Of a DNA stretch of 64,000 nt, positions 6,895 through 55,498 are shown one piece after another. Where the stretch lies: the IMG/VR virus record IMGVR_UViG_2925891887_000001. The stretch is one strand, 5' to 3'. Position numbers and translations under genes: made by a program. Within the stretch, counting starts at the first letter, position 1. The number at the start of each line of letters is the position of its first letter. Below the pieces are notes generated by a model, which worked only from the letters and a program-made list of their open reading frames with translations, made no database searches and was not told where the DNA came from. Origin of the DNA: a virus (lineage: Duplodnaviria > Heunggongvirae > Uroviricota > Caudoviricetes).

Positions 6895-7065
6895 TTGTAG
6901 GTAGTTATCTATCTGTGTATATTGCATTTGCGCGTTAAATTTCTGAAACAACTATTCGTTTTTGGTGGCCTATGGCCACCATTTTTTTATCTATCTGGTC
7001 TTGTTCTCTCAATAAATGTAAACTCACACAATGAATAAGTGGTTACTTATCTTTGTGAGGTTTTT

Positions 7066-8169
7066 GTGTCACTCCTTTTGAATCGTGAGCATACGAACGG
7101 TCAGGTAACAAACGCATCGTATGCAAAAGTTATTGAGACGGTGCTTAAAAGCGGCGTGCAGGCTGATGATCGCACAGGCACTGGTACTTTAAGCACCTGC
7201 TACGTTCCCTCTTACTACATGCTTACTGGTGGGACTGTGCCGCTTATTTCTGGAAAGGCGGTAAATCTTAAGCCACTACTTGTCGAACTTGAGTGGTATC
7301 TGAAAGGCACGGGCAACATCCAATTTCTCAAGGATAACGGCGTTAAGATTTGGGATGCATGGGCCGATGAGAATGGCGATTTGGGGCCGGTTTACGGTAA
7401 GCAGTGGCGTCGATGGGAAGATACCCGCATCGTGAGCCATAGTGAATATCTGAGCAAGATCGATACTTTCCGTGAACGCGGGTACAAAGTCGAGGGATAC
7501 CTGGGTATCAGTGAAGATCGCGTAGTGCTGTCCCGTGAAATCGATCAGCTACAGCGTATTGTCGATACACTGCGCACGAATCCTACCGATCGTCGCATCA
7601 TGCTTAACGCATGGAACGTAGGCGAGCTTGAGGATATGAAACTGCCACCTTGCCACTTTGTCTTCTCTTTGTGGAGTCGTGAGCTTGATTTTGAAACCCG
7701 TTTAACGATGGCAACTGACATTGGTCTTCAACACAGTCGCCTCGGTTATGAGTCTATCTACACCAAGATGCTATACGATCTGGAGATGGACGGCAGTGTT
7801 ACTGAAACTGAACTGGATGAACTTGGAATCCCCAAACGCATCCTCAACTCCTGCCTCGTACAGCGTAGCGTAGACACTTTTGTTGGTATGCCATTCAATA
7901 TTGCTGGCTATGGCATTCTCACTCATTTTCTCGCGAAGATTACGGGTCACATGGCCGGTGCATTTGTGCATTTTGGCTTTGACGTGCATTTGTACAACAA
8001 CCACATGGAAGGTGTGTGTGAGCTAATGCAACGACAGGCTCCAGAGCATTCAGATCCGGTCGTTATATTCCCTAATGAATGGTCTGAGCTGGATGATTTC
8101 AAATGGGACGAGATTCTTATTCTTGGCTATGCCCCTCTACCGTGGATCAAGGTTCCAGTGGCGGTGTGA
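7066..8169 (+). CDS. thyA: thymidylate synthase (with lineage-specific insertion)
   Basis: DRTGTGT, GDLGPVYGKQWR, catalytic LPPCH, QRSVD, MPFNIAGYG; GTG start with GAGG 6 nt upstream chosen (ORF track opens at 7039). Confidence 0.85.
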   Translation: MSLLLNREHTNGQVTNASYAKVIETVLKSGVQADDRTGTGTLSTCYVPSYYMLTGGTVPLISGKAVNLKPLLVELEWYLKGTGNIQFLKDNGVKIWDAWADENGDLGPVYGKQWRRWEDTRIVSHSEYLSKIDTFRERGYKVEGYLGISEDRVVLSREIDQLQRIVDTLRTNPTDRRIMLNAWNVGELEDMKLPPCHFVFSLWSRELDFETRLTMATDIGLQHSRLGYESIYTKMLYDLEMDGSVTETELDELGIPKRILNSCLVQRSVDTFVGMPFNIAGYGILTHFLAKITGHMAGAFVHFGFDVHLYNNHMEGVCELMQRQAPEHSDPVVIFPNEWSELDDFKWDEILILGYAPLPWIKVPVAV

Positions 8170-19279: not shown

Positions 19280-19441
19280 ACGCTACAAATCCTTCGGCAT
19301 GAATAAATAAAGGCCATAAGTTGTGGCCTTAAATAAATTGTTTTCTACCTTTTCTTATTTGTGAAAATAACCACAACTAGAAAACAACGGAGTTAAGAAT
19401 GTCTAGTATTTCCGAAGCTCATATGTTCGCCGCTGGCGCTC

Positions 19442-19568
19442 GGTGATGCTGCCAACTTACTGATTTAGTGTATGATGGTGTTTTTGAGGTGCTCCAGTGG
19501 CTTCTGTTTCTATCAGCTGTCCCTCCTGTTCAGCTACTGACGGGGTGGTGCGTAACGGCAAAAGCACC
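19442..19568 (+). mobile_element. IS1 fragment (left terminal inverted repeat through insA codon 24 only)
   Basis: Identical to IS1 positions 1-127 and to the reverse complement of the complete IS1 at 54445-55212; identity stops abruptly inside insA. Confidence 0.9.
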
Positions 19569-19577
19569 ACCTTTTTA

Positions 19578-20678
19578 TCACACTGCGCGGAATGCGATTT
19601 CGCCAGGTATTACTTCACCTTGCCAATACATTTGGGCAGCAACGCGATCTGCGAGGTCACGATAAATAGCCGTAAATTCACTATCTGGACGACTAATAAC
19701 GGTTGGTGTTCCGTTATCCAGATCTTCACGAAGAGAGATATGAAGTGGCATTTGGCCTAACAACTGCGTGTTGTATTTCTCGGCCAGTTTCTGTGCGCCA
19801 CCGGTGCCAAAAATTGGCTCGTGATGACCGCAGTTACTGCAAATATGCACACTCATGTTTTCAACGATACCCAGTACCGGCACTTCGACTTTTTCGAACA
19901 TCACAATGCCTTTCTTCGCATCGATCAGCGCGATGTCTTGCGGCGTAGTTACCACAACCGCACCAGTTACAGGAATGTTCTGCGCCAGCGTCAATTGAAT
20001 ATCACCAGTGCCCGGTGGCATATCGAGAACGAGATAGTCCAGATCAGGCCACAGTGTTTCCTGCAACATCTGCATCAGCGCCTTGCTGGCCATCGGTCCA
20101 CGCCACACCATTGCATTGTCGTCGGTGACCAGATAACCAATAGAGTTGGTTGCCAGGCCATGAGACATGATAGGTGCCATGTGAGTACCGTCCGGTGAGG
20201 TTGGACGTTGGTTTTCCGCGCCCAGCATGGTTGGAATTGATGGACCATAGATATCGGCATCCAAAATACCAACTTTCGCACCTTCAGCAGCCAACGCCAG
20301 TGCCAGGTTTACCGCCGTGGAGGATTTACCCACGCCGCCCTTGCCCGAGCTGACGGCGATAATGTTCTTAACGCCATTAATGCCTGGTTGGTTTTTGACG
20401 CGCTTAAGCGTGGCAATGTTGTACGACAGCTTCCAGTCAATAGCCTTTGCGCCAGTGATACGGAGCAGATCACCACTACATTGCTCTTTCAGGTCTTCAA
20501 AAGGCTTATTCCACACGAAAGGCATGATTAGTTCGACATGCAGTGTGTCATCCATCAACGCAACATGGTGTAACGCTTTAAGCGTAGTCAGGTTGTGTTT
20601 CAGGGTTGGGTGCTGAAAATTAGCCAGCGTACCGGCTACCATTGCTCTCAGGGCATCCGGCGATTTGGACTCGCTCAT
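19578..20678 (-). CDS. apbC: Fe-S cluster carrier ATPase Mrp/ApbC (E. coli chromosomal gene)
   Basis: 366-aa ORF with deviant Walker [12 protein letters not shown], CxxC pair (ICSNCGHH) and near-identity to E. coli Mrp as I recall it. Confidence 0.9.
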
Positions 20679-20835
20679 CCCGTCTCCTTTATTTTAATTT
20701 GCGCAATTGTCGCCTTGTAGTGTACTCCAGCTACGACATTTAATCATTTATGAGAAATGCTGTTATCACATGGCAGACATAAGGCCATTTTGTTACTATC
20801 AAGCCCCTTTTCACTACAAAGAAGTAATGCCTACT

Positions 20836-22869
20836 ATGACCCAAGTCGCGAAGAAAATTCTGGTGACGTGCGCGCTGCCGTACGCTAACGGCTCAATCCA
20901 CCTCGGCCATATGCTGGAGCACATCCAGGCTGATGTCTGGGTTCGTTACCAGCGAATGCGCGGCCACGAGGTTAATTTCATCTGTGCCGACGATGCCCAC
21001 GGTACGCCGATCATGCTGAAAGCACAGCAGCTTGGTATCACACCGGAGCAGATGATTGGCGAAATGAGTCAGGAACACCAGACTGATTTCGCAGGCTTTA
21101 ACATCAGCTATGACAACTATCACTCGACGCACAGCGAAGAGAACCGTCAGTTGTCTGAGCTTATCTATACTCGCCTGAAAGAGAACGGTTTTATTAAAAA
21201 CCGTACTATCTCTCAGTTGTACGACCCGGAAAAAGGCATGTTCCTGCCGGATCGTTTTGTGAAAGGCACCTGCCCGAAATGTAAATCCCCGGATCAATAC
21301 GGCGATAACTGCGAAGTCTGCGGCGCGACCTACAGCCCGACTGAATTGATCGAGCCGAAATCGGTGGTTTCTGGTGCTACCCCGGTAATGCGTGATTCTG
21401 AACACTTCTTCTTTGATCTGCCCTCTTTCAGCGAAATGTTGCAGGCATGGACCCGCAGCGGTGCGTTGCAGGAGCAGGTGGCAAATAAAATGCAGGAGTG
21501 GTTTGAATCCGGCCTGCAACAGTGGGATATCTCCCGCGACGCGCCATACTTTGGTTTTGAAATTCCGAACGCGCCGGGCAAATATTTCTACGTCTGGCTG
21601 GACGCACCGATTGGCTACATGGGTTCTTTCAAGAATCTGTGCGACAAGCGCGGCGACAGCGTAAGCTTCGATGAATACTGGAAGAAAGACTCCACCGCCG
21701 AGCTGTACCACTTCATCGGTAAAGATATCGTTTACTTCCACAGCCTGTTCTGGCCTGCCATGCTGGAAGGCAGCAACTTCCGCAAGCCGACCAACCTGTT
21801 TGTTCATGGCTATGTGACGGTGAACGGCGCGAAGATGTCCAAGTCTCGCGGCACCTTTATTAAAGCCAGCACCTGGCTGAATCATTTTGACGCTGACAGC
21901 CTGCGTTACTACTACACTGCGAAACTCTCTTCGCGCATTGATGATATCGATCTCAACCTGGAGGATTTCGTTCAGCGCGTGAATGCCGATATCGTGAACA
22001 AAGTGGTTAACCTGGCGTCCCGTAACGCTGGCTTTATCAATAAGCGTTTTGACGGTGTGCTGGCAAGCGAGCTGGCTGACCCGCAGTTGTACAAAACCTT
22101 CACTGATGCCGCTGAAGTGATTGGTGAAGCGTGGGAAAGCCGCGAATTTGGTAAAGCTATCCGTGAAATCATGGCACTGGCTGACCTGGCTAACCGCTAT
22201 GTCGACGAGCAGGCTCCTTGGGTAGTCGCAAAACAGGAAGGTCGCGATGCTGACCTGCAGGCGATTTGCTCAATGGGCATCAACCTGTTCCGCGTGCTGA
22301 TGACTTACCTGAAACCGGTACTGCCGAAACTGACAGAACGTGCGGAAGCATTCCTGAATACGGAACTGACCTGGGATGGCATCCAGCAACCGCTGCTGGG
22401 CCATAAAGTGAATCCGTTCAAAGCACTGTATAACCGTATCGACATGAAACAGGTGGAAGCATTGGTGGAAGCGTCTAAAGAAGAAGTGAAAGCTACTGCC
22501 GCGCCAGTTACTGGCCCGCTGGCAGACGACCCGATTCAGGAAACCATCACCTTTGACGACTTTGCCAAAGTTGACCTGCGCGTGGCACTGATCGAAAACG
22601 CAGAGTTTGTTGAAGGTTCTGACAAACTGCTGCGCCTGACGCTGGATCTCGGCGGTGAAAAACGCAATGTCTTCTCAGGCATCCGTTCTGCTTATCCAGA
22701 CCCACAGGCACTGATTGGTCGTCACACCATTATGGTGGCTAACCTGGCTCCGCGTAAGATGCGCTTCGGCATCTCCGAAGGTATGGTGATGGCTGCTGGC
22801 CCCGGCGGGAAAGATATCTTCCTGTTAAGCCCGGATGCTGGTGCTAAACCTGGCCACCAGGTTAAGTAA
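20836..22869 (+). CDS. metG: methionyl-tRNA synthetase (E. coli chromosomal gene)
   Basis: 677 aa from [26 protein letters not shown]; HIGH-type motif, KMSKS, zinc knuckle CPKC...CEVCG; essentially identical to E. coli MetG. Confidence 0.95.
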
Positions 22870-22889
22870 TTAAGCAACCTCTGTTCGCA

Positions 22890-22918
22890 ATGCCCGGCAA
22901 CACGCTGGGCATTTTCAT
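22890..22918 (+). terminator. terminator-like hairpin downstream of metG
   Basis: atgcccggcaacacgctgggcat followed by tttcat. Confidence 0.4.
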
Positions 22919-22952
22919 ATAGACACAATCCCTCCTGATTTACACAAGCCTT

Positions 22953-22967
22953 AAAACAATTTGTTTT
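22953..22967. promoter_or_regulatory. motif A palindrome AAAACAATTTGTTTT (second copy at 23002-23017)
   Basis: First phage-type element to the right of the host segment. Confidence 0.5.
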
Positions 22968-23030
22968 CTACCTTTTGTTGATTGAGATAATAAGCCACAT
23001 AAGAAAACAAATTGTTTCGGAGTGGTTGAA

Positions 23031-27982: not shown

Positions 27983-28062
27983 AAGCCCGATAACAATTTG
28001 TTTTCTGCCTTATCTGATTTGTGAAAATGATTTCACTGAAGCAAGTTAATAAGGAAACCATC

Positions 28063-54261: not shown

Positions 54262-54459
54262 CTATCGACTGCCCCGACCGGGGCAGTCTCACAAGGATGT
54301 GAGATGGAAAGACAAACGTTTAATTGGTATCCAGATTACGAATCTGAAAAGAGCGTAAAACCGAATGTAACGGTACTTAATTTTGGTGATGACTACGAGC
54401 AGCGACAGGCTCAAGGTCTTAATCGTATTAAAGAAGAATGGTCGGGTAATGACTCCAAC

Positions 54460-54963
54460 TTATTGATAGTGTTTTATGTTCAGATAATGCCCGATGACTT
54501 TGTCATGCAGCTCCACCGATTTTGAGAACGACAGCGACTTCCGTCCCAGCCGTGCCAGGTGCTGCCTCAGATTCAGGTTATGCCGCTCAATTCGCTGCGT
54601 ATATCGCTTGCTGATTACGTGCAGCTTTCCCTTCAGGCGGGATTCATACAGCGGCCAGCCATCCGTCATCCATATCACCACGTCAAAGGGTGACAGCAGG
54701 CTCATAAGACGCCCCAGCGTCGCCATAGTGCGTTCACCGAATACGTGCGCAACAACCGTCTTCCGGAGCCTGTCATACGCGTAAAACAGCCAGCGCTGGC
54801 GCGATTTAGCCCCGACATAGCCCCACTGTTCGTCCATTTCCGCGCAGACGATGACGTCACTGCCCGGCTGTATGCGCGAGGTTACCGACTGCGGCCTGAG
54901 TTTTTTAAGTGACGTAAAATCGTGTTGAGGCCAACGCCCATAATGCGGGCAGTTGCCCGGCAT
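54460..54963 (-). CDS. insB: IS1 InsB reading frame (transposase made as InsAB' by frameshift)
   Basis: ORF in -1 frame overlapping insA 3' end; matches IS1 insB. Confidence 0.85.
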
Positions 54964-55157
54964 CCAACGCCATTCATGGCCATATCAATGATTTTCTGGT
55001 GCGTACCGGGTTGAGAAGCGGTGTAAGTGAACTGCAGTTGCCATGTTTTACGGCAGTGAGAGCAGAGATAGCGCTGATGTCCGGCGGTGCTTTTGCCGTT
55101 ACGCACCACCCCGTCAGTAGCTGAACAGGAGGGACAGCTGATAGAAACAGAAGCCAC
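54882..55157 (-). CDS. insA: IS1 InsA
   Basis: [43 protein letters not shown]... matches IS1 InsA. Confidence 0.9.
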
Positions 55158-55498
55158 TGGAGCACCTCAAAAACACCATCATACACTAAATCAGTAAGTT
55201 GGCAGCATCACCGAATGGTCGTTAACCTTTACCAGATCATACAACGAAATTAATGCAATCGATGACTTCCTGACTGAGCGAGCAGGCGTTGAGTCGTTCT
55301 ATTGGGTTAATCCAAGAGGAAAACGGATTGTAGTTGTATGTGACAGTCATACGGTCAAGCGATATCAGGGGTACTGTGTCTTAACTGCTACATTCAGACA
55401 AGTATTTGAGGCTTAAGTATCTGGATAAGTAAGTACTAATTTACTATCATTGTGGCGCTGACAGGATGTTAGCGCCTACTTATTTCAAGGATGAAACA

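Follow-up and report, generated by a model that had tools for sequence, protein, structure and literature searches.

The apbC-metG gene pair that lies beside a truncated copy of IS1 in the 64,000-nucleotide stretch of phage DNA analysed here (the window; IMG/VR record IMGVR_UViG_2925891887_000001) is very probably long-resident cargo of a clade of phage-plasmids, and the IS1 fragment next to it the scar of a secondary deletion. This reading was reached by sequence comparison with plasmids, phages and chromosomes, and the features on which it depends are collected in the table.

Table. Features at and around the apbC-metG module (window coordinates)
Feature	Position	Strand	Description
Motif A, copy 1	19331..19387	+	57-nt direct repeat, promoter/operator-like, ahead of early-region gene cassettes
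HD_4-domain gene remnant	19399..19446	+	14 native codons, then into IS1; stop TGA at 19444-19446
IS1 stub	19442..19568	+	IRL, insA promoter region and insA codons 1-24; 127 of 768 bp left
Deletion junction	19542..19577	+	seen on aligning the window base by base with IS1 and four relatives
apbC/mrp	19578..20678	-	366 aa, predicted Fe-S cluster carrier P-loop ATPase
Divergent apbC/metG promoter region	20679..20835	.	100% conserved among phage-plasmids
metG	20836..22869	+	full-length methionyl-tRNA synthetase, 677 aa
Chromosome-like patch in metG	21204..21877	+	E. coli-type, sublineage-specific
metG terminator, hairpin and T-run	22889..22913	+	fold -16.9 kcal/mol, z -3.7
Motif A, copy 2	22954..23010	+	upstream of the next phage gene, encoding a DUF5983 protein

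On homology, the window is assigned to a phage-plasmid of the SSU5 supergroup, within an Escherichia/Shigella clade that includes Cyrano/pLF82 and, going by the literature, would also include pWPMR2. Its structural module is 97.6% identical to that of Cyrano/pLF82 in a DNA comparison, and SSU5 matches positions 40000-64000 at 80.7% identity over 86% of this 24-kb region, so that the SSU5-like siphovirus morphogenesis module typical of the family is present. Plasmid replication and maintenance were traced through the record p22AR0322A (109,442 bp, circular), which is 100% identical to the window over the 8 kb compared and carries a RepB initiator together with phage tail and replication genes on one replicon, the RepB gene lying outside the window itself. 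A tRNA-Met gene that could pair with the synthetase was looked for, and the window contains no tRNA genes at all; the four in p22AR0322A are those for Ser, Thr, Tyr and Asn. A second, full IS1 (54445-55212, 768 bp, with the perfect 9-bp target duplication GAATGGTCG) interrupts a gpM-like tail gene, a homologue of tail gene M, so the phage copy in the window may be defective for virions. Infectious virions have been demonstrated for Cyrano, which has a copy number of about 5.5 per cell (PMC9928086). SSU5 and pHCM2 belong to the same supergroup as the window but, unlike the window, SSU5 gave no apbC-metG match in a DNA or protein search of the phage collection. The module is regarded as specific to the Escherichia/Shigella clade of the supergroup.

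The module measures about 3.3 kb. At least 80% of the segment is found in 204 PLSDB plasmids, with 185 of the matching records at 95-99% identity, the range given also for the approximately 190 Escherichia and six Shigella plasmids in PLSDB with the module; 218-219 plasmid copies were counted among 5,426 complete E. coli genomes, and the module is also found in four deposited phage genomes, including PhiR41_1 (listed host K-12). Most carriers lack IS1 beside the module; in its place, apbC is adjoined by humD and the humD terminator. IS1-free relatives with the module in the same place are Cyrano, PhiR41_1, pW170_1, p88COLEC-2, p4_0.2 and the MARGA_4 plasmid, all with the gene order humD, terminator, apbC, metG, motif A. 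The module of Cyrano (pLF82, OV696614), CMS-2020a and PhiR41_1 is 95.8-96.8% identical to that of the window and occupies the same position; the intact humD terminator adjoins apbC in Cyrano and PhiR41_1, preceded by other cassettes (e.g. Ea22-like) and with no IS1 stub, while the homology of CMS-2020a, likewise without the stub, begins at 19564. From these comparisons apbC-metG is identified as a resident accessory cassette of the clade, with its own divergent promoter region and metG terminator, which would sit between the humD terminator and the module boundary at motif A.

An earlier note on this DNA had reported that phage motif A resumes after metG, and the 57-nt repeat does flank the segment on either side. 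Copy 2 bears a perfect 16-nt inverted repeat (22954-22969 / 23002-23017), and the window has three occurrences of the 16-mer core where chance would give 0.05. Homology to relatives with other cassettes breaks at 19373/19374, within copy 1, and motif A is taken to be a module boundary as well. The ORF that follows copy 1 reads MSSISEAHMFAAGA and then R and a stop within IS1. Over 19374-19441 (68 bp) the window matches, at 100% identity, the beginning of an intact gene for a 213-aa 'HD domain-containing protein' in at least 30 plasmids (positions 7026-7667 of locus L007), whose product matches Pfam PF13328 HD_4 at 67.8 bits; the truncated gene is therefore named here as an HD_4-domain gene, with a predicted RelA/SpoT-type hydrolase-like product.

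The geometry of the IS1 junctions had been described in the earlier note as an ORF at 19399 running into the left end of IS1 at 19442, with 127 bp of IS1 identity ending inside insA codon 25 and the apbC stop codon 9 bp farther on, and all of this was reproduced to the base: the identity stops at 19568 and the stop codon (TTA on the + strand) occupies 19578-19580. The stub is identical at 127/127 positions to the IS1 of P1 (AJ000741) and of PhiR11_1_star (PV340548) and at 125/126 (99.2%) to positions 1-126 of the annotated IS1A. Its IRL is an exact 23-nt match to that of IS1, and the view that phage DNA meets a true IS end here is borne out; the apbC/IS1 junction is internal to IS1 and hence, as had also been argued, is not the product of simple transposition. 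As only positions 1-127 are left, with no right end and no transposase, the stub is classed as a remnant rather than an element, and because its right end is deleted a target-site duplication cannot exist; PGAP labels it 'IS1 family transposase, incomplete' in an identical record. The exact left IRL is shared with insertions of the IS1A/IS1B family, but the inner breakpoint is transposase-independent. By contrast, the copy at 54445-55212 is a textbook IS1 insertion, with the right end and duplication that the stub lacks.

At the inner junction a microhomology of 5 bp, GCACC (19564-19568), links IS1 nucleotide 127 to the humD terminator, whose ancestral 3' arm and T-run are kept at 19564-19577. 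The microhomology would extend to 8 bp with the terminator allele GCACCGCC; the window has GCACCACC, hence 5 bp. Together with the retained 3' arm, the IS1 bases GGGGTGGTGC (19542-19551) re-form a terminator-like hairpin of -17.5 kcal/mol (z -3.0), as compared with -15.3 for the ancestral humD terminator. A consensus promoter and terminator scan found no more sites than in shuffled controls; the junction hairpin was missed because its 12-nt loop is above the limit of the scan, and it was hence folded directly. The exact 181-bp structure with both junctions is 100% identical in seven complete RefSeq E. coli plasmids and in CP057685.1, and its carriers, isolated in several countries, have human, pig, chicken and giant panda sources. 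The stub is interpreted as a scar left when a later insertion was followed by a deletion beside a resident apbC-metG.

The proposed course of events is as follows. The HD_4-domain gene that follows motif A would have received an IS1 insertion 43 bp after its start or, alternatively, an IS1-mediated adjacent deletion would have placed the left end of IS1 at that site. A transposase-independent deletion would then have fused IS1 nucleotide 127 to the loop and 3' arm of the humD terminator at GCACC, taking with it what remained of IS1 and of the HD gene, some ten small early genes, and humD. With a parent resembling p4_0.2 the deletion would measure about 6.2 kb; the interval from motif A to humD is hypervariable among relatives, so both size and content would vary with the parent. 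An IS1-mediated adjacent deletion was also considered for the inner junction and was rejected, as such deletions begin at the IS end and not at nucleotide 127. No full IS1 at the HD-gene site, which would represent the intermediate, was found among the matches listed, and the order of events is thus inferred.

Both genes of the module had been described as complete, and profile searches recovered them at full length and above cutoffs. ApbC scored 759.3 bits against the NCBIfam equivalog NF008669 (cutoff 348), and its translation has both the deviant Walker A motif GKGGVGKS and the CxxC motif CSNCGH. MetG scored 1018.8 bits against NF001100 (cutoff 587) and 163 bits against the C-terminal domain model TIGR00399; HLGH (the HIGH motif, residue 22), KMSKS (333) and the zinc knuckles CPKC (146) and CEVC (159) are intact, as is the C-terminal tRNA-binding/dimerisation domain. 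The description of the segment as E. coli chromosomal called for a correction. Homology to K-12 is confined to 19582-22870, where identity is 88.75%, and the segment is not strictly chromosomal DNA.

Divergence is unevenly distributed across the module. In apbC, 195 of 1101 positions differ from K-12 and only 1-22 from sister phage-plasmids; its identity to each chromosome sampled is about 82%, and its dS of 1.56 against E. coli (dN 0.035) may be set against 1.35 for E. coli versus Salmonella. All six phage-plasmids compared encode the same ApbC protein (dN among them 0). The intergenic region shows 0/157 differences among phage-plasmids and 48/131 against K-12, and it aligns poorly to chromosomes except for some 40 bp beside metG. 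In metG, 109 of 2034 positions differ from K-12 (94.6% identity), and each of the six residues that differ in MetRS matches E1V33 and/or Salmonella, Citrobacter or Klebsiella. With dN/dS against K-12 of 0.023 for apbC and 0.013 for metG, both proteins are judged to be under purifying selection. The region after metG gave no alignment with K-12, E1V33, Citrobacter or Salmonella, and the stem changes among phage-plasmids in the terminator that it contains are compensatory; this terminator is considered the module's own and non-homologous to the chromosomal metG terminator. The apbC homologue of Cyrano (CYRAN_99) has been reported at 9-fold over local background expression in lysogens (PMC9928086).

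The module would have been captured from an enterobacterial chromosome belonging neither to E. coli nor to any sampled species, or else captured very long ago, and in either case its capture would long predate the IS1 event. A MetRS search of genome contigs covering at least 80 enterobacterial species found no donor among the matches listed, where the best identities were 88.7% for the whole segment (E. coli type) and about 82% for apbC; the loci listed held no E. albertii, E. fergusonii, E. marmotae or E. ruysiae chromosomes. In a database of 5.8 billion proteins, clusters at 90% identity join the phage-plasmid, E. coli and Salmonella copies of ApbC (about 95% identical), so that search is uninformative on the donor.

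Two origins for the structure had been offered in the earlier note. One, an assembly chimera in which IS1 bridged reads of phage and host so that apbC-metG really belongs to the host chromosome, is extremely improbable, although IS1 is highly repetitive in E. coli (a median of 10 places per genome), repeats are classic chimera points and the junction does lie inside IS1. A module only 88.8% identical to K-12, with apbC at about 82% to E. coli chromosomes, is neither propagation-host DNA nor the product of such an assembly; its downstream terminator and intergenic region are non-chromosomal, its right-hand end is without any IS, the same module stands without IS1 in about 200 plasmids and four phage records, and the identical two-junction stub recurs in eight independent complete assemblies. 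The other, an IS1-associated rearrangement with capture of host DNA, fared better in one half: a rearrangement did occur, but it would have deleted phage DNA and brought in no host DNA. Capture of apbC-metG by IS1, whether by composite transposon, cointegrate resolution or adjacent rearrangement, with the stub as what is left of the vehicle, is considered very unlikely. IS1 does adjoin the module, the full copy at 54445-55212 shares its replicon, and in p88COLEC-2 a full IS1A follows metG at a few hundred bp, albeit at a different site. The IS1-free relatives, however, carry the module in the same place with humD and its terminator beside apbC, and its divergence (apbC dS 1.56) is far older than a near-identical IS1 copy. 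Moreover, the 3' half of the humD terminator persists between IS1 and apbC in the window, which indicates that IS1 arrived beside a module already in residence.

A third possibility concerns only the route by which IS1 and apbC were joined, namely recombination of the IS1 in the HD gene with a second copy, already truncated, near the humD terminator, or import of stub and module together from another plasmid by homologous recombination. Plasmids bearing the stub are identical on the left and differ by about 5% in metG, and the window and pAMPD1 have one difference in 1423 bp on the left and 97 in 1869 bp on the right, a contrast showing that recombination shuffles the region; a microhomology of 5 bp is also short. 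Even so, this route is thought improbable, as the matches listed include no relative whose humD terminator carries an IS1 fragment, and one crossover within GCACC fully explains the junction sequence. 

Within metG, the patch listed in the table has 15/674 differences from K-12 as against 24-31/674 from sister phage-plasmids, and many E. coli chromosomes match the overlapping block 21211-21900 at 99.3% identity. Of 37 metG differences between the window and pW170_1, 24 fall within the patch (binomial P = 6e-9), most of these sites matching K-12, and the tests for a mosaic metG gave P = 6e-9, 6e-23 and 3e-6. The patch, which occurs in only two other records, is a probable gene-conversion tract of the window's sublineage. 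In principle it might be a polishing artefact between paralogues, but its identity to the chromosomes listed is 99.3% and not 100%. The window allele also differs from those of Cyrano, CMS-2020a and PhiR41_1 at 4-5% of sites, mostly synonymous. The phage-plasmid metG thus appears to be a mosaic formed by recombination with chromosomal alleles of E. coli, next to an apbC that stays deeply diverged, a point that may be new. Ongoing allelic exchange with the essential host metG, from which the adjacent apbC xenologue would be barred as too dissimilar to recombine, is put forward tentatively, with the odds judged close to even but slightly against. On the main reading itself, metG would have stayed close enough to the host gene to recombine, and Escherichia chromosomal alleles would repeatedly have replaced patches of it; apbC, at about 82% identity, would have escaped such replacement.

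[quoted passage not shown] Phage-plasmids like pWPMR2 have been described in S. sonnei and in E. coli CC131, CC23 and CC73 (bioRxiv 10.1101/2025.09.12.675607). Like the window, the pWPMR2 type comprises SSU5-supergroup phage-plasmids of Escherichia/Shigella with an extra methionine-tRNA ligase gene; going by the published descriptions, the window differs in adding the IS1 stub, the deletion of about 6 kb and the full IS1 that interrupts the homologue of tail gene M. In PMC10591226 metG only marks where a transposon lies on the chromosome, and the paper is irrelevant to phage-plasmid metG. The activity and level of MetRS are determinants of persistence (PMC11004401), and mupA/ileS2 and the chromosomal metG tolerance/persistence alleles (PMC11004401) are precedents in which an extra or altered aminoacyl-tRNA synthetase alters antibiotic survival. 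Unlike these, the window MetRS is near wild-type with its catalytic motifs intact, so we infer that any effect would come from dosage or regulation and not from a drug-insensitive or defective enzyme. On the literature, as far as the accounts cited here go, a second metG at plasmid dosage may alter Met-tRNA charging physiology and so give rise to antimicrobial-tolerant subpopulations.

With humD and the HD_4 gene lost and an IS1 in a tail gene, this variant looks to be drifting towards a plasmid-only lifestyle with its cargo intact, which is consistent with selection maintaining apbC-metG rather than phage functions. Host genes beside a broken IS in a phage look like contamination or fresh transduction; here they appear to be stable, selected cargo of reported clinical relevance, and comparison with relatives quickly settles such cases. 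The phage-plasmid would add a second MetRS and a second ApbC to its host at roughly plasmid copy number, and the literature, in the accounts cited here, ties phage-plasmid metG to antimicrobial survival in epidemic Shigella. If the proposed exchange with the host gene is real, the phage-plasmid would serve as a reservoir of alleles of an essential translation gene and as a shuttle that spreads them by horizontal transmission, the near-identical stretch of 2 kb could support RecA-mediated integration or chromosome mobilisation, and the tolerance phenotype attributed to phage-plasmid metG could vary with the mosaic allele carried. A mosaic metG next to a frozen apbC would be a clean natural example of divergence limiting homologous exchange between a mobile element and the chromosome.

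The window was assigned by DNA comparison to the SSU5 supergroup of phage-plasmids. Positions 40000-64000 were 97.6% identical to Escherichia phage Cyrano, which is the pLF82 phage-plasmid of AIEC LF82, makes siphovirus particles, is SOS-inducible, and is present at ~5.5 copies per cell (PMC9928086). An 8-kb stretch spanning the apbC-metG region was 100% identical to p22AR0322A, a circular 109-kb plasmid with RepB and phage replication, tail and tRNA genes. Salmonella phage SSU5 was 80.7% identical across 86% of positions 40000-64000; it shares the supergroup but gave no match to the apbC-metG segment in DNA or protein searches. Four phage records (Cyrano, two of CMS-2020a, and PhiR41_1) carry the segment at 95.8-96.8% identity, and at least 80% of it is present in 204 PLSDB plasmids, the matching records comprising 190 from Escherichia and 6 from Shigella, nearly all ~110 kb and non-mobilizable. 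A set of 5,426 complete E. coli genomes contained 218-219 plasmid-borne copies beside the chromosomal one. Gene order was invariable in relatives free of the IS1 stub (Cyrano, PhiR41_1, pW170_1, p88COLEC-2, p4_0.2 and the MARGA_4 plasmid), namely humD (UmuD-like S24 peptidase; NF051876, 220 bits), the humD terminator, apbC on the reverse strand, metG, and motif A; the module was therefore resident before IS1 arrived. As judged from these records, the host-like module is lineage-wide phage-plasmid cargo, already known, and no local accident.

Coordinates of features in and around the apbC-metG module (L-handles denote loci of relatives; L007 is the p4_0.2-type locus and L004 the MARGA_4 plasmid)
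Feature	Position	Strand	Details
Motif A	19331-19387 and 22954-23010		57-nt direct repeat with internal inverted repeats
Motif A, weaker copy	near 27998
Short ORF	starts 19399		reads MSSISEAHMFAAGA
Intact HD_4 gene	L007 7026-7667		remnant in window at 19399-19441
IS1 left inverted repeat	starts 19442
IS1 stub	19442-19568		127/127 vs IS1 of P1 fragment AJ000741; 125/126 vs annotated IS1A
apbC	19578-20678	minus	complete, 366 aa; NCBIfam NF008669, 759 bits (cutoff 348)
Intergenic region	between apbC and metG		157 bp, divergent
metG	20836-22869		complete, 677 aa; NCBIfam NF001100, 1019 bits (cutoff 587)
metG terminator of module	22889-22913		hairpin; homologous positions in L002, L004, L008

ApbC and MetG were assigned using curated NCBIfam equivalog cutoffs, both well exceeded. 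The MetRS keeps the HIGH and KMSKS motifs, the zinc knuckles and the C-terminal domain, and both genes are, by their dN/dS (0.013 for metG and 0.023 for apbC), under strong purifying selection. The ApbC protein was identical in 6/6 phage-plasmids compared, though the genes had up to 22 synonymous differences. At 366 aa it is shorter than the 369-aa protein of all chromosomal copies compared, three codons of the N-terminal region being absent (20650-20678, apbC 5' end). The terminator stem after metG is GCCCGG/CCGGGC in Cyrano and GCCCAG/CTGGGC in pAMPD1, a plasmid also bearing the stub, with a G-U pair in the window; since these changes are compensatory, a functional hairpin is supported. This terminator is unrelated to that of chromosomal metG.

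The earlier note had regarded the segment as E. coli chromosomal DNA, joined to the phage either by an IS1-associated capture or by misassembly of phage and host reads. Its description of the site was confirmed in the sequence reading and ORF list, including the ORF at 19399, the IS1 left end at 19442 with 127 bp of identity reaching insA codon 25, the complete apbC 9 bp beyond it followed by complete metG, and the flanking motif A repeats; the origin proposed for the segment did not hold. Homology to K-12 was confined to 19582-22870 (apbC stop to metG stop) at only 88.75% identity, with 195/1101 differences in apbC, 48/131 in the intergenic region and 109/2034 in metG, and neither the post-metG terminator nor most of the intergenic region aligned to any chromosome compared. 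The 80 enterobacterial species representatives listed, among which E. albertii, E. fergusonii, E. marmotae and E. ruysiae did not figure, gave a best whole-segment identity of 88.7% (E. coli type), followed by an Escherichia cryptic lineage (87.5%) and Citrobacter (~84%). The segment is thus distinguished in sequence from propagation-host DNA. Capture by IS1 is contradicted by the stub-free relatives, which carry the module beside the humD terminator. The exact 181-bp sequence containing both junctions was 100% identical in 7 RefSeq complete E. coli plasmids and CP057685.1, from isolates of humans, pigs, chicken and giant panda, and because it recurs in these eight assemblies the stub is an inherited structure. 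Together with the chromosomal divergence and purifying selection, these concordant assemblies exclude both an assembly chimera and a recent capture of host DNA. In CP170191.1, labelled "Enterobacter hormaechei strain B56 chromosome", apbC and metG each showed 0 differences from E. coli K-12, and this record is probably mislabelled or contaminated.

The stub is an unexceptional scar of IS1 insertion and deletion beside known cargo; in the PGAP annotation it is an incomplete IS1 transposase. The 68 bp separating motif A from IS1 (19374-19441) match, at 100% identity, the beginning of an intact 213-aa gene in at least 30 relatives, annotated "HD domain-containing protein" and matching Pfam HD_4 (RelA/SpoT-type hydrolase domain); the gene destroyed was possibly a small alarmone hydrolase with an HD_4 domain only. 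In p4_0.2, about ten small early genes separate this gene from humD, which comes after them. Relatives read ...GG(T/C)GGTGC-AAT-GCACC(A/G)CC-TTTTTAT-(apbC stop) before apbC, which is the humD terminator hairpin, and only GCACCACCTTTTTAT remains of it in the window. IS1 reads ...AAAGCACC/GCCGG, the slash marking the breakpoint within insA codon 25, and because the window, IS1 and humD terminator sequences agree in the pentamer GCACC (19564-19568), the crossover was placed inside it. On this alignment the IS1/apbC junction is transposase-independent. With a p4_0.2-like parent, the deletion would span ~6.2 kb (L007 7069-13295) and would have removed IS1 nt 128-768, the remaining HD gene, humD and the cassettes between the two. 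A chance occurrence of GGGGTGGTGC in IS1, 12 nt before the breakpoint, lets the junction re-form a terminator-like hairpin (10-bp stem and U-run; -17.5 kcal/mol on folding vs -15.3 for the ancestral terminator), which may still protect apbC against antisense read-through.

The 16-mer core of motif A occurs 3 times in the window vs 0.05 expected by chance, and the motif behaves like a promoter/operator-like element doubling as a module-exchange boundary of the early region. Its copies lie precisely where relatives change over to other gene cassettes, with homology breaking at 19373/19374, and in the copy at 22954-23017 the 16-nt inverted arms are perfect and 32 nt apart. In relatives, gene decay and independent IS1 activity have a hotspot in the early region around the module: in p88COLEC-2 a full IS1A (L003 7778-8545) lies ~470 bp downstream of metG, at a site other than that of the stub, the Pol III theta gene is frameshifted, and a type I R-M system is encoded upstream, and the ead/Ea22 gene of the MARGA_4 plasmid is truncated (L004 4666-4785).

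The two cargo genes have evolved differently. For apbC, dS was 1.56 between the window and E. coli, 1.35 between E. coli and Salmonella, and up to 0.09 among phage-plasmids (dN = 0); for metG it was 0.27 against K-12 and up to 0.23 among phage-plasmids. A sliding-window scan with per-block difference counts indicated a mosaic metG. Block 21204-21877 differed from K-12 at 15/674 sites and from sister phage-plasmids at 16-31/674, and many E. coli chromosomes matched the overlapping block 21211-21900 at 99.3% identity. Against pW170_1, the closest allele, 24/37 differences fell inside 21204-21877 (P = 6e-9), most matching K-12. The 3' third belongs to another allele class (best chromosomal match 96%), and right of position 21000 the window differed at 97/1869 sites from pAMPD1, which is identical in stub and apbC (P = 6e-23). 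The simplest reading is that the module came from an enterobacterium other than E. coli or by a very old capture, that metG would later have been overwritten patchwise by recombination with Escherichia chromosomal metG, and that apbC, at ~82% identity, would have been too divergent to recombine. A paralogue-polishing artefact is conceivable for the mid-block patch of this allele, which only two other records carry, but metG mosaicism in general is supported by many assemblies.

In epidemic S. sonnei, as summarized in PMC12452169, the metG of the phage-plasmid pWPMR2 occurs in multiple and highly variable copies, and its expression yields a subpopulation predisposed to antimicrobial survival and to acquisition of cephalosporin resistance (Tam et al., medRxiv 10.1101/2024.10.27.24316207). 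In S. sonnei, elements of the pWPMR2 type are common, and they have been found in E. coli CC131, CC23 and CC73 as well (bioRxiv 10.1101/2025.09.12.675607). Independent work found persistence to be affected by MetRS level and editing activity (PMC11004401), and expression of the apbC homologue in lysogens of Cyrano is ~9-fold over prophage background (PMC9928086). Only six MetRS residues differ from K-12, all of them (6/6) matching Escherichia sp. E1V33 and/or Salmonella, Citrobacter or Klebsiella, so any MetRS effect is more likely to act through dosage or regulation than through an altered enzyme.

A second, full-length IS1 (768 bp, 54445-55212, minus strand, 99.6% identity to IS1A) lies inverted relative to the stub and 35 kb from it, with a perfect 9-bp target duplication GAATGGTCG (site 54436-55221). 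It splits a 111-aa Phage_min_tail gene (PF05939, gpM-like, 120.6 bits), and functional tails are probably beyond this phage-plasmid copy. The residual interest lies partly in such a variant, whose phage functions are apparently decaying with the apbC-metG cargo still intact, and partly in the recombination asymmetry between metG and apbC; the loss of a putative (p)ppGpp hydrolase beside tolerance-linked metG cargo is a curious coincidence.
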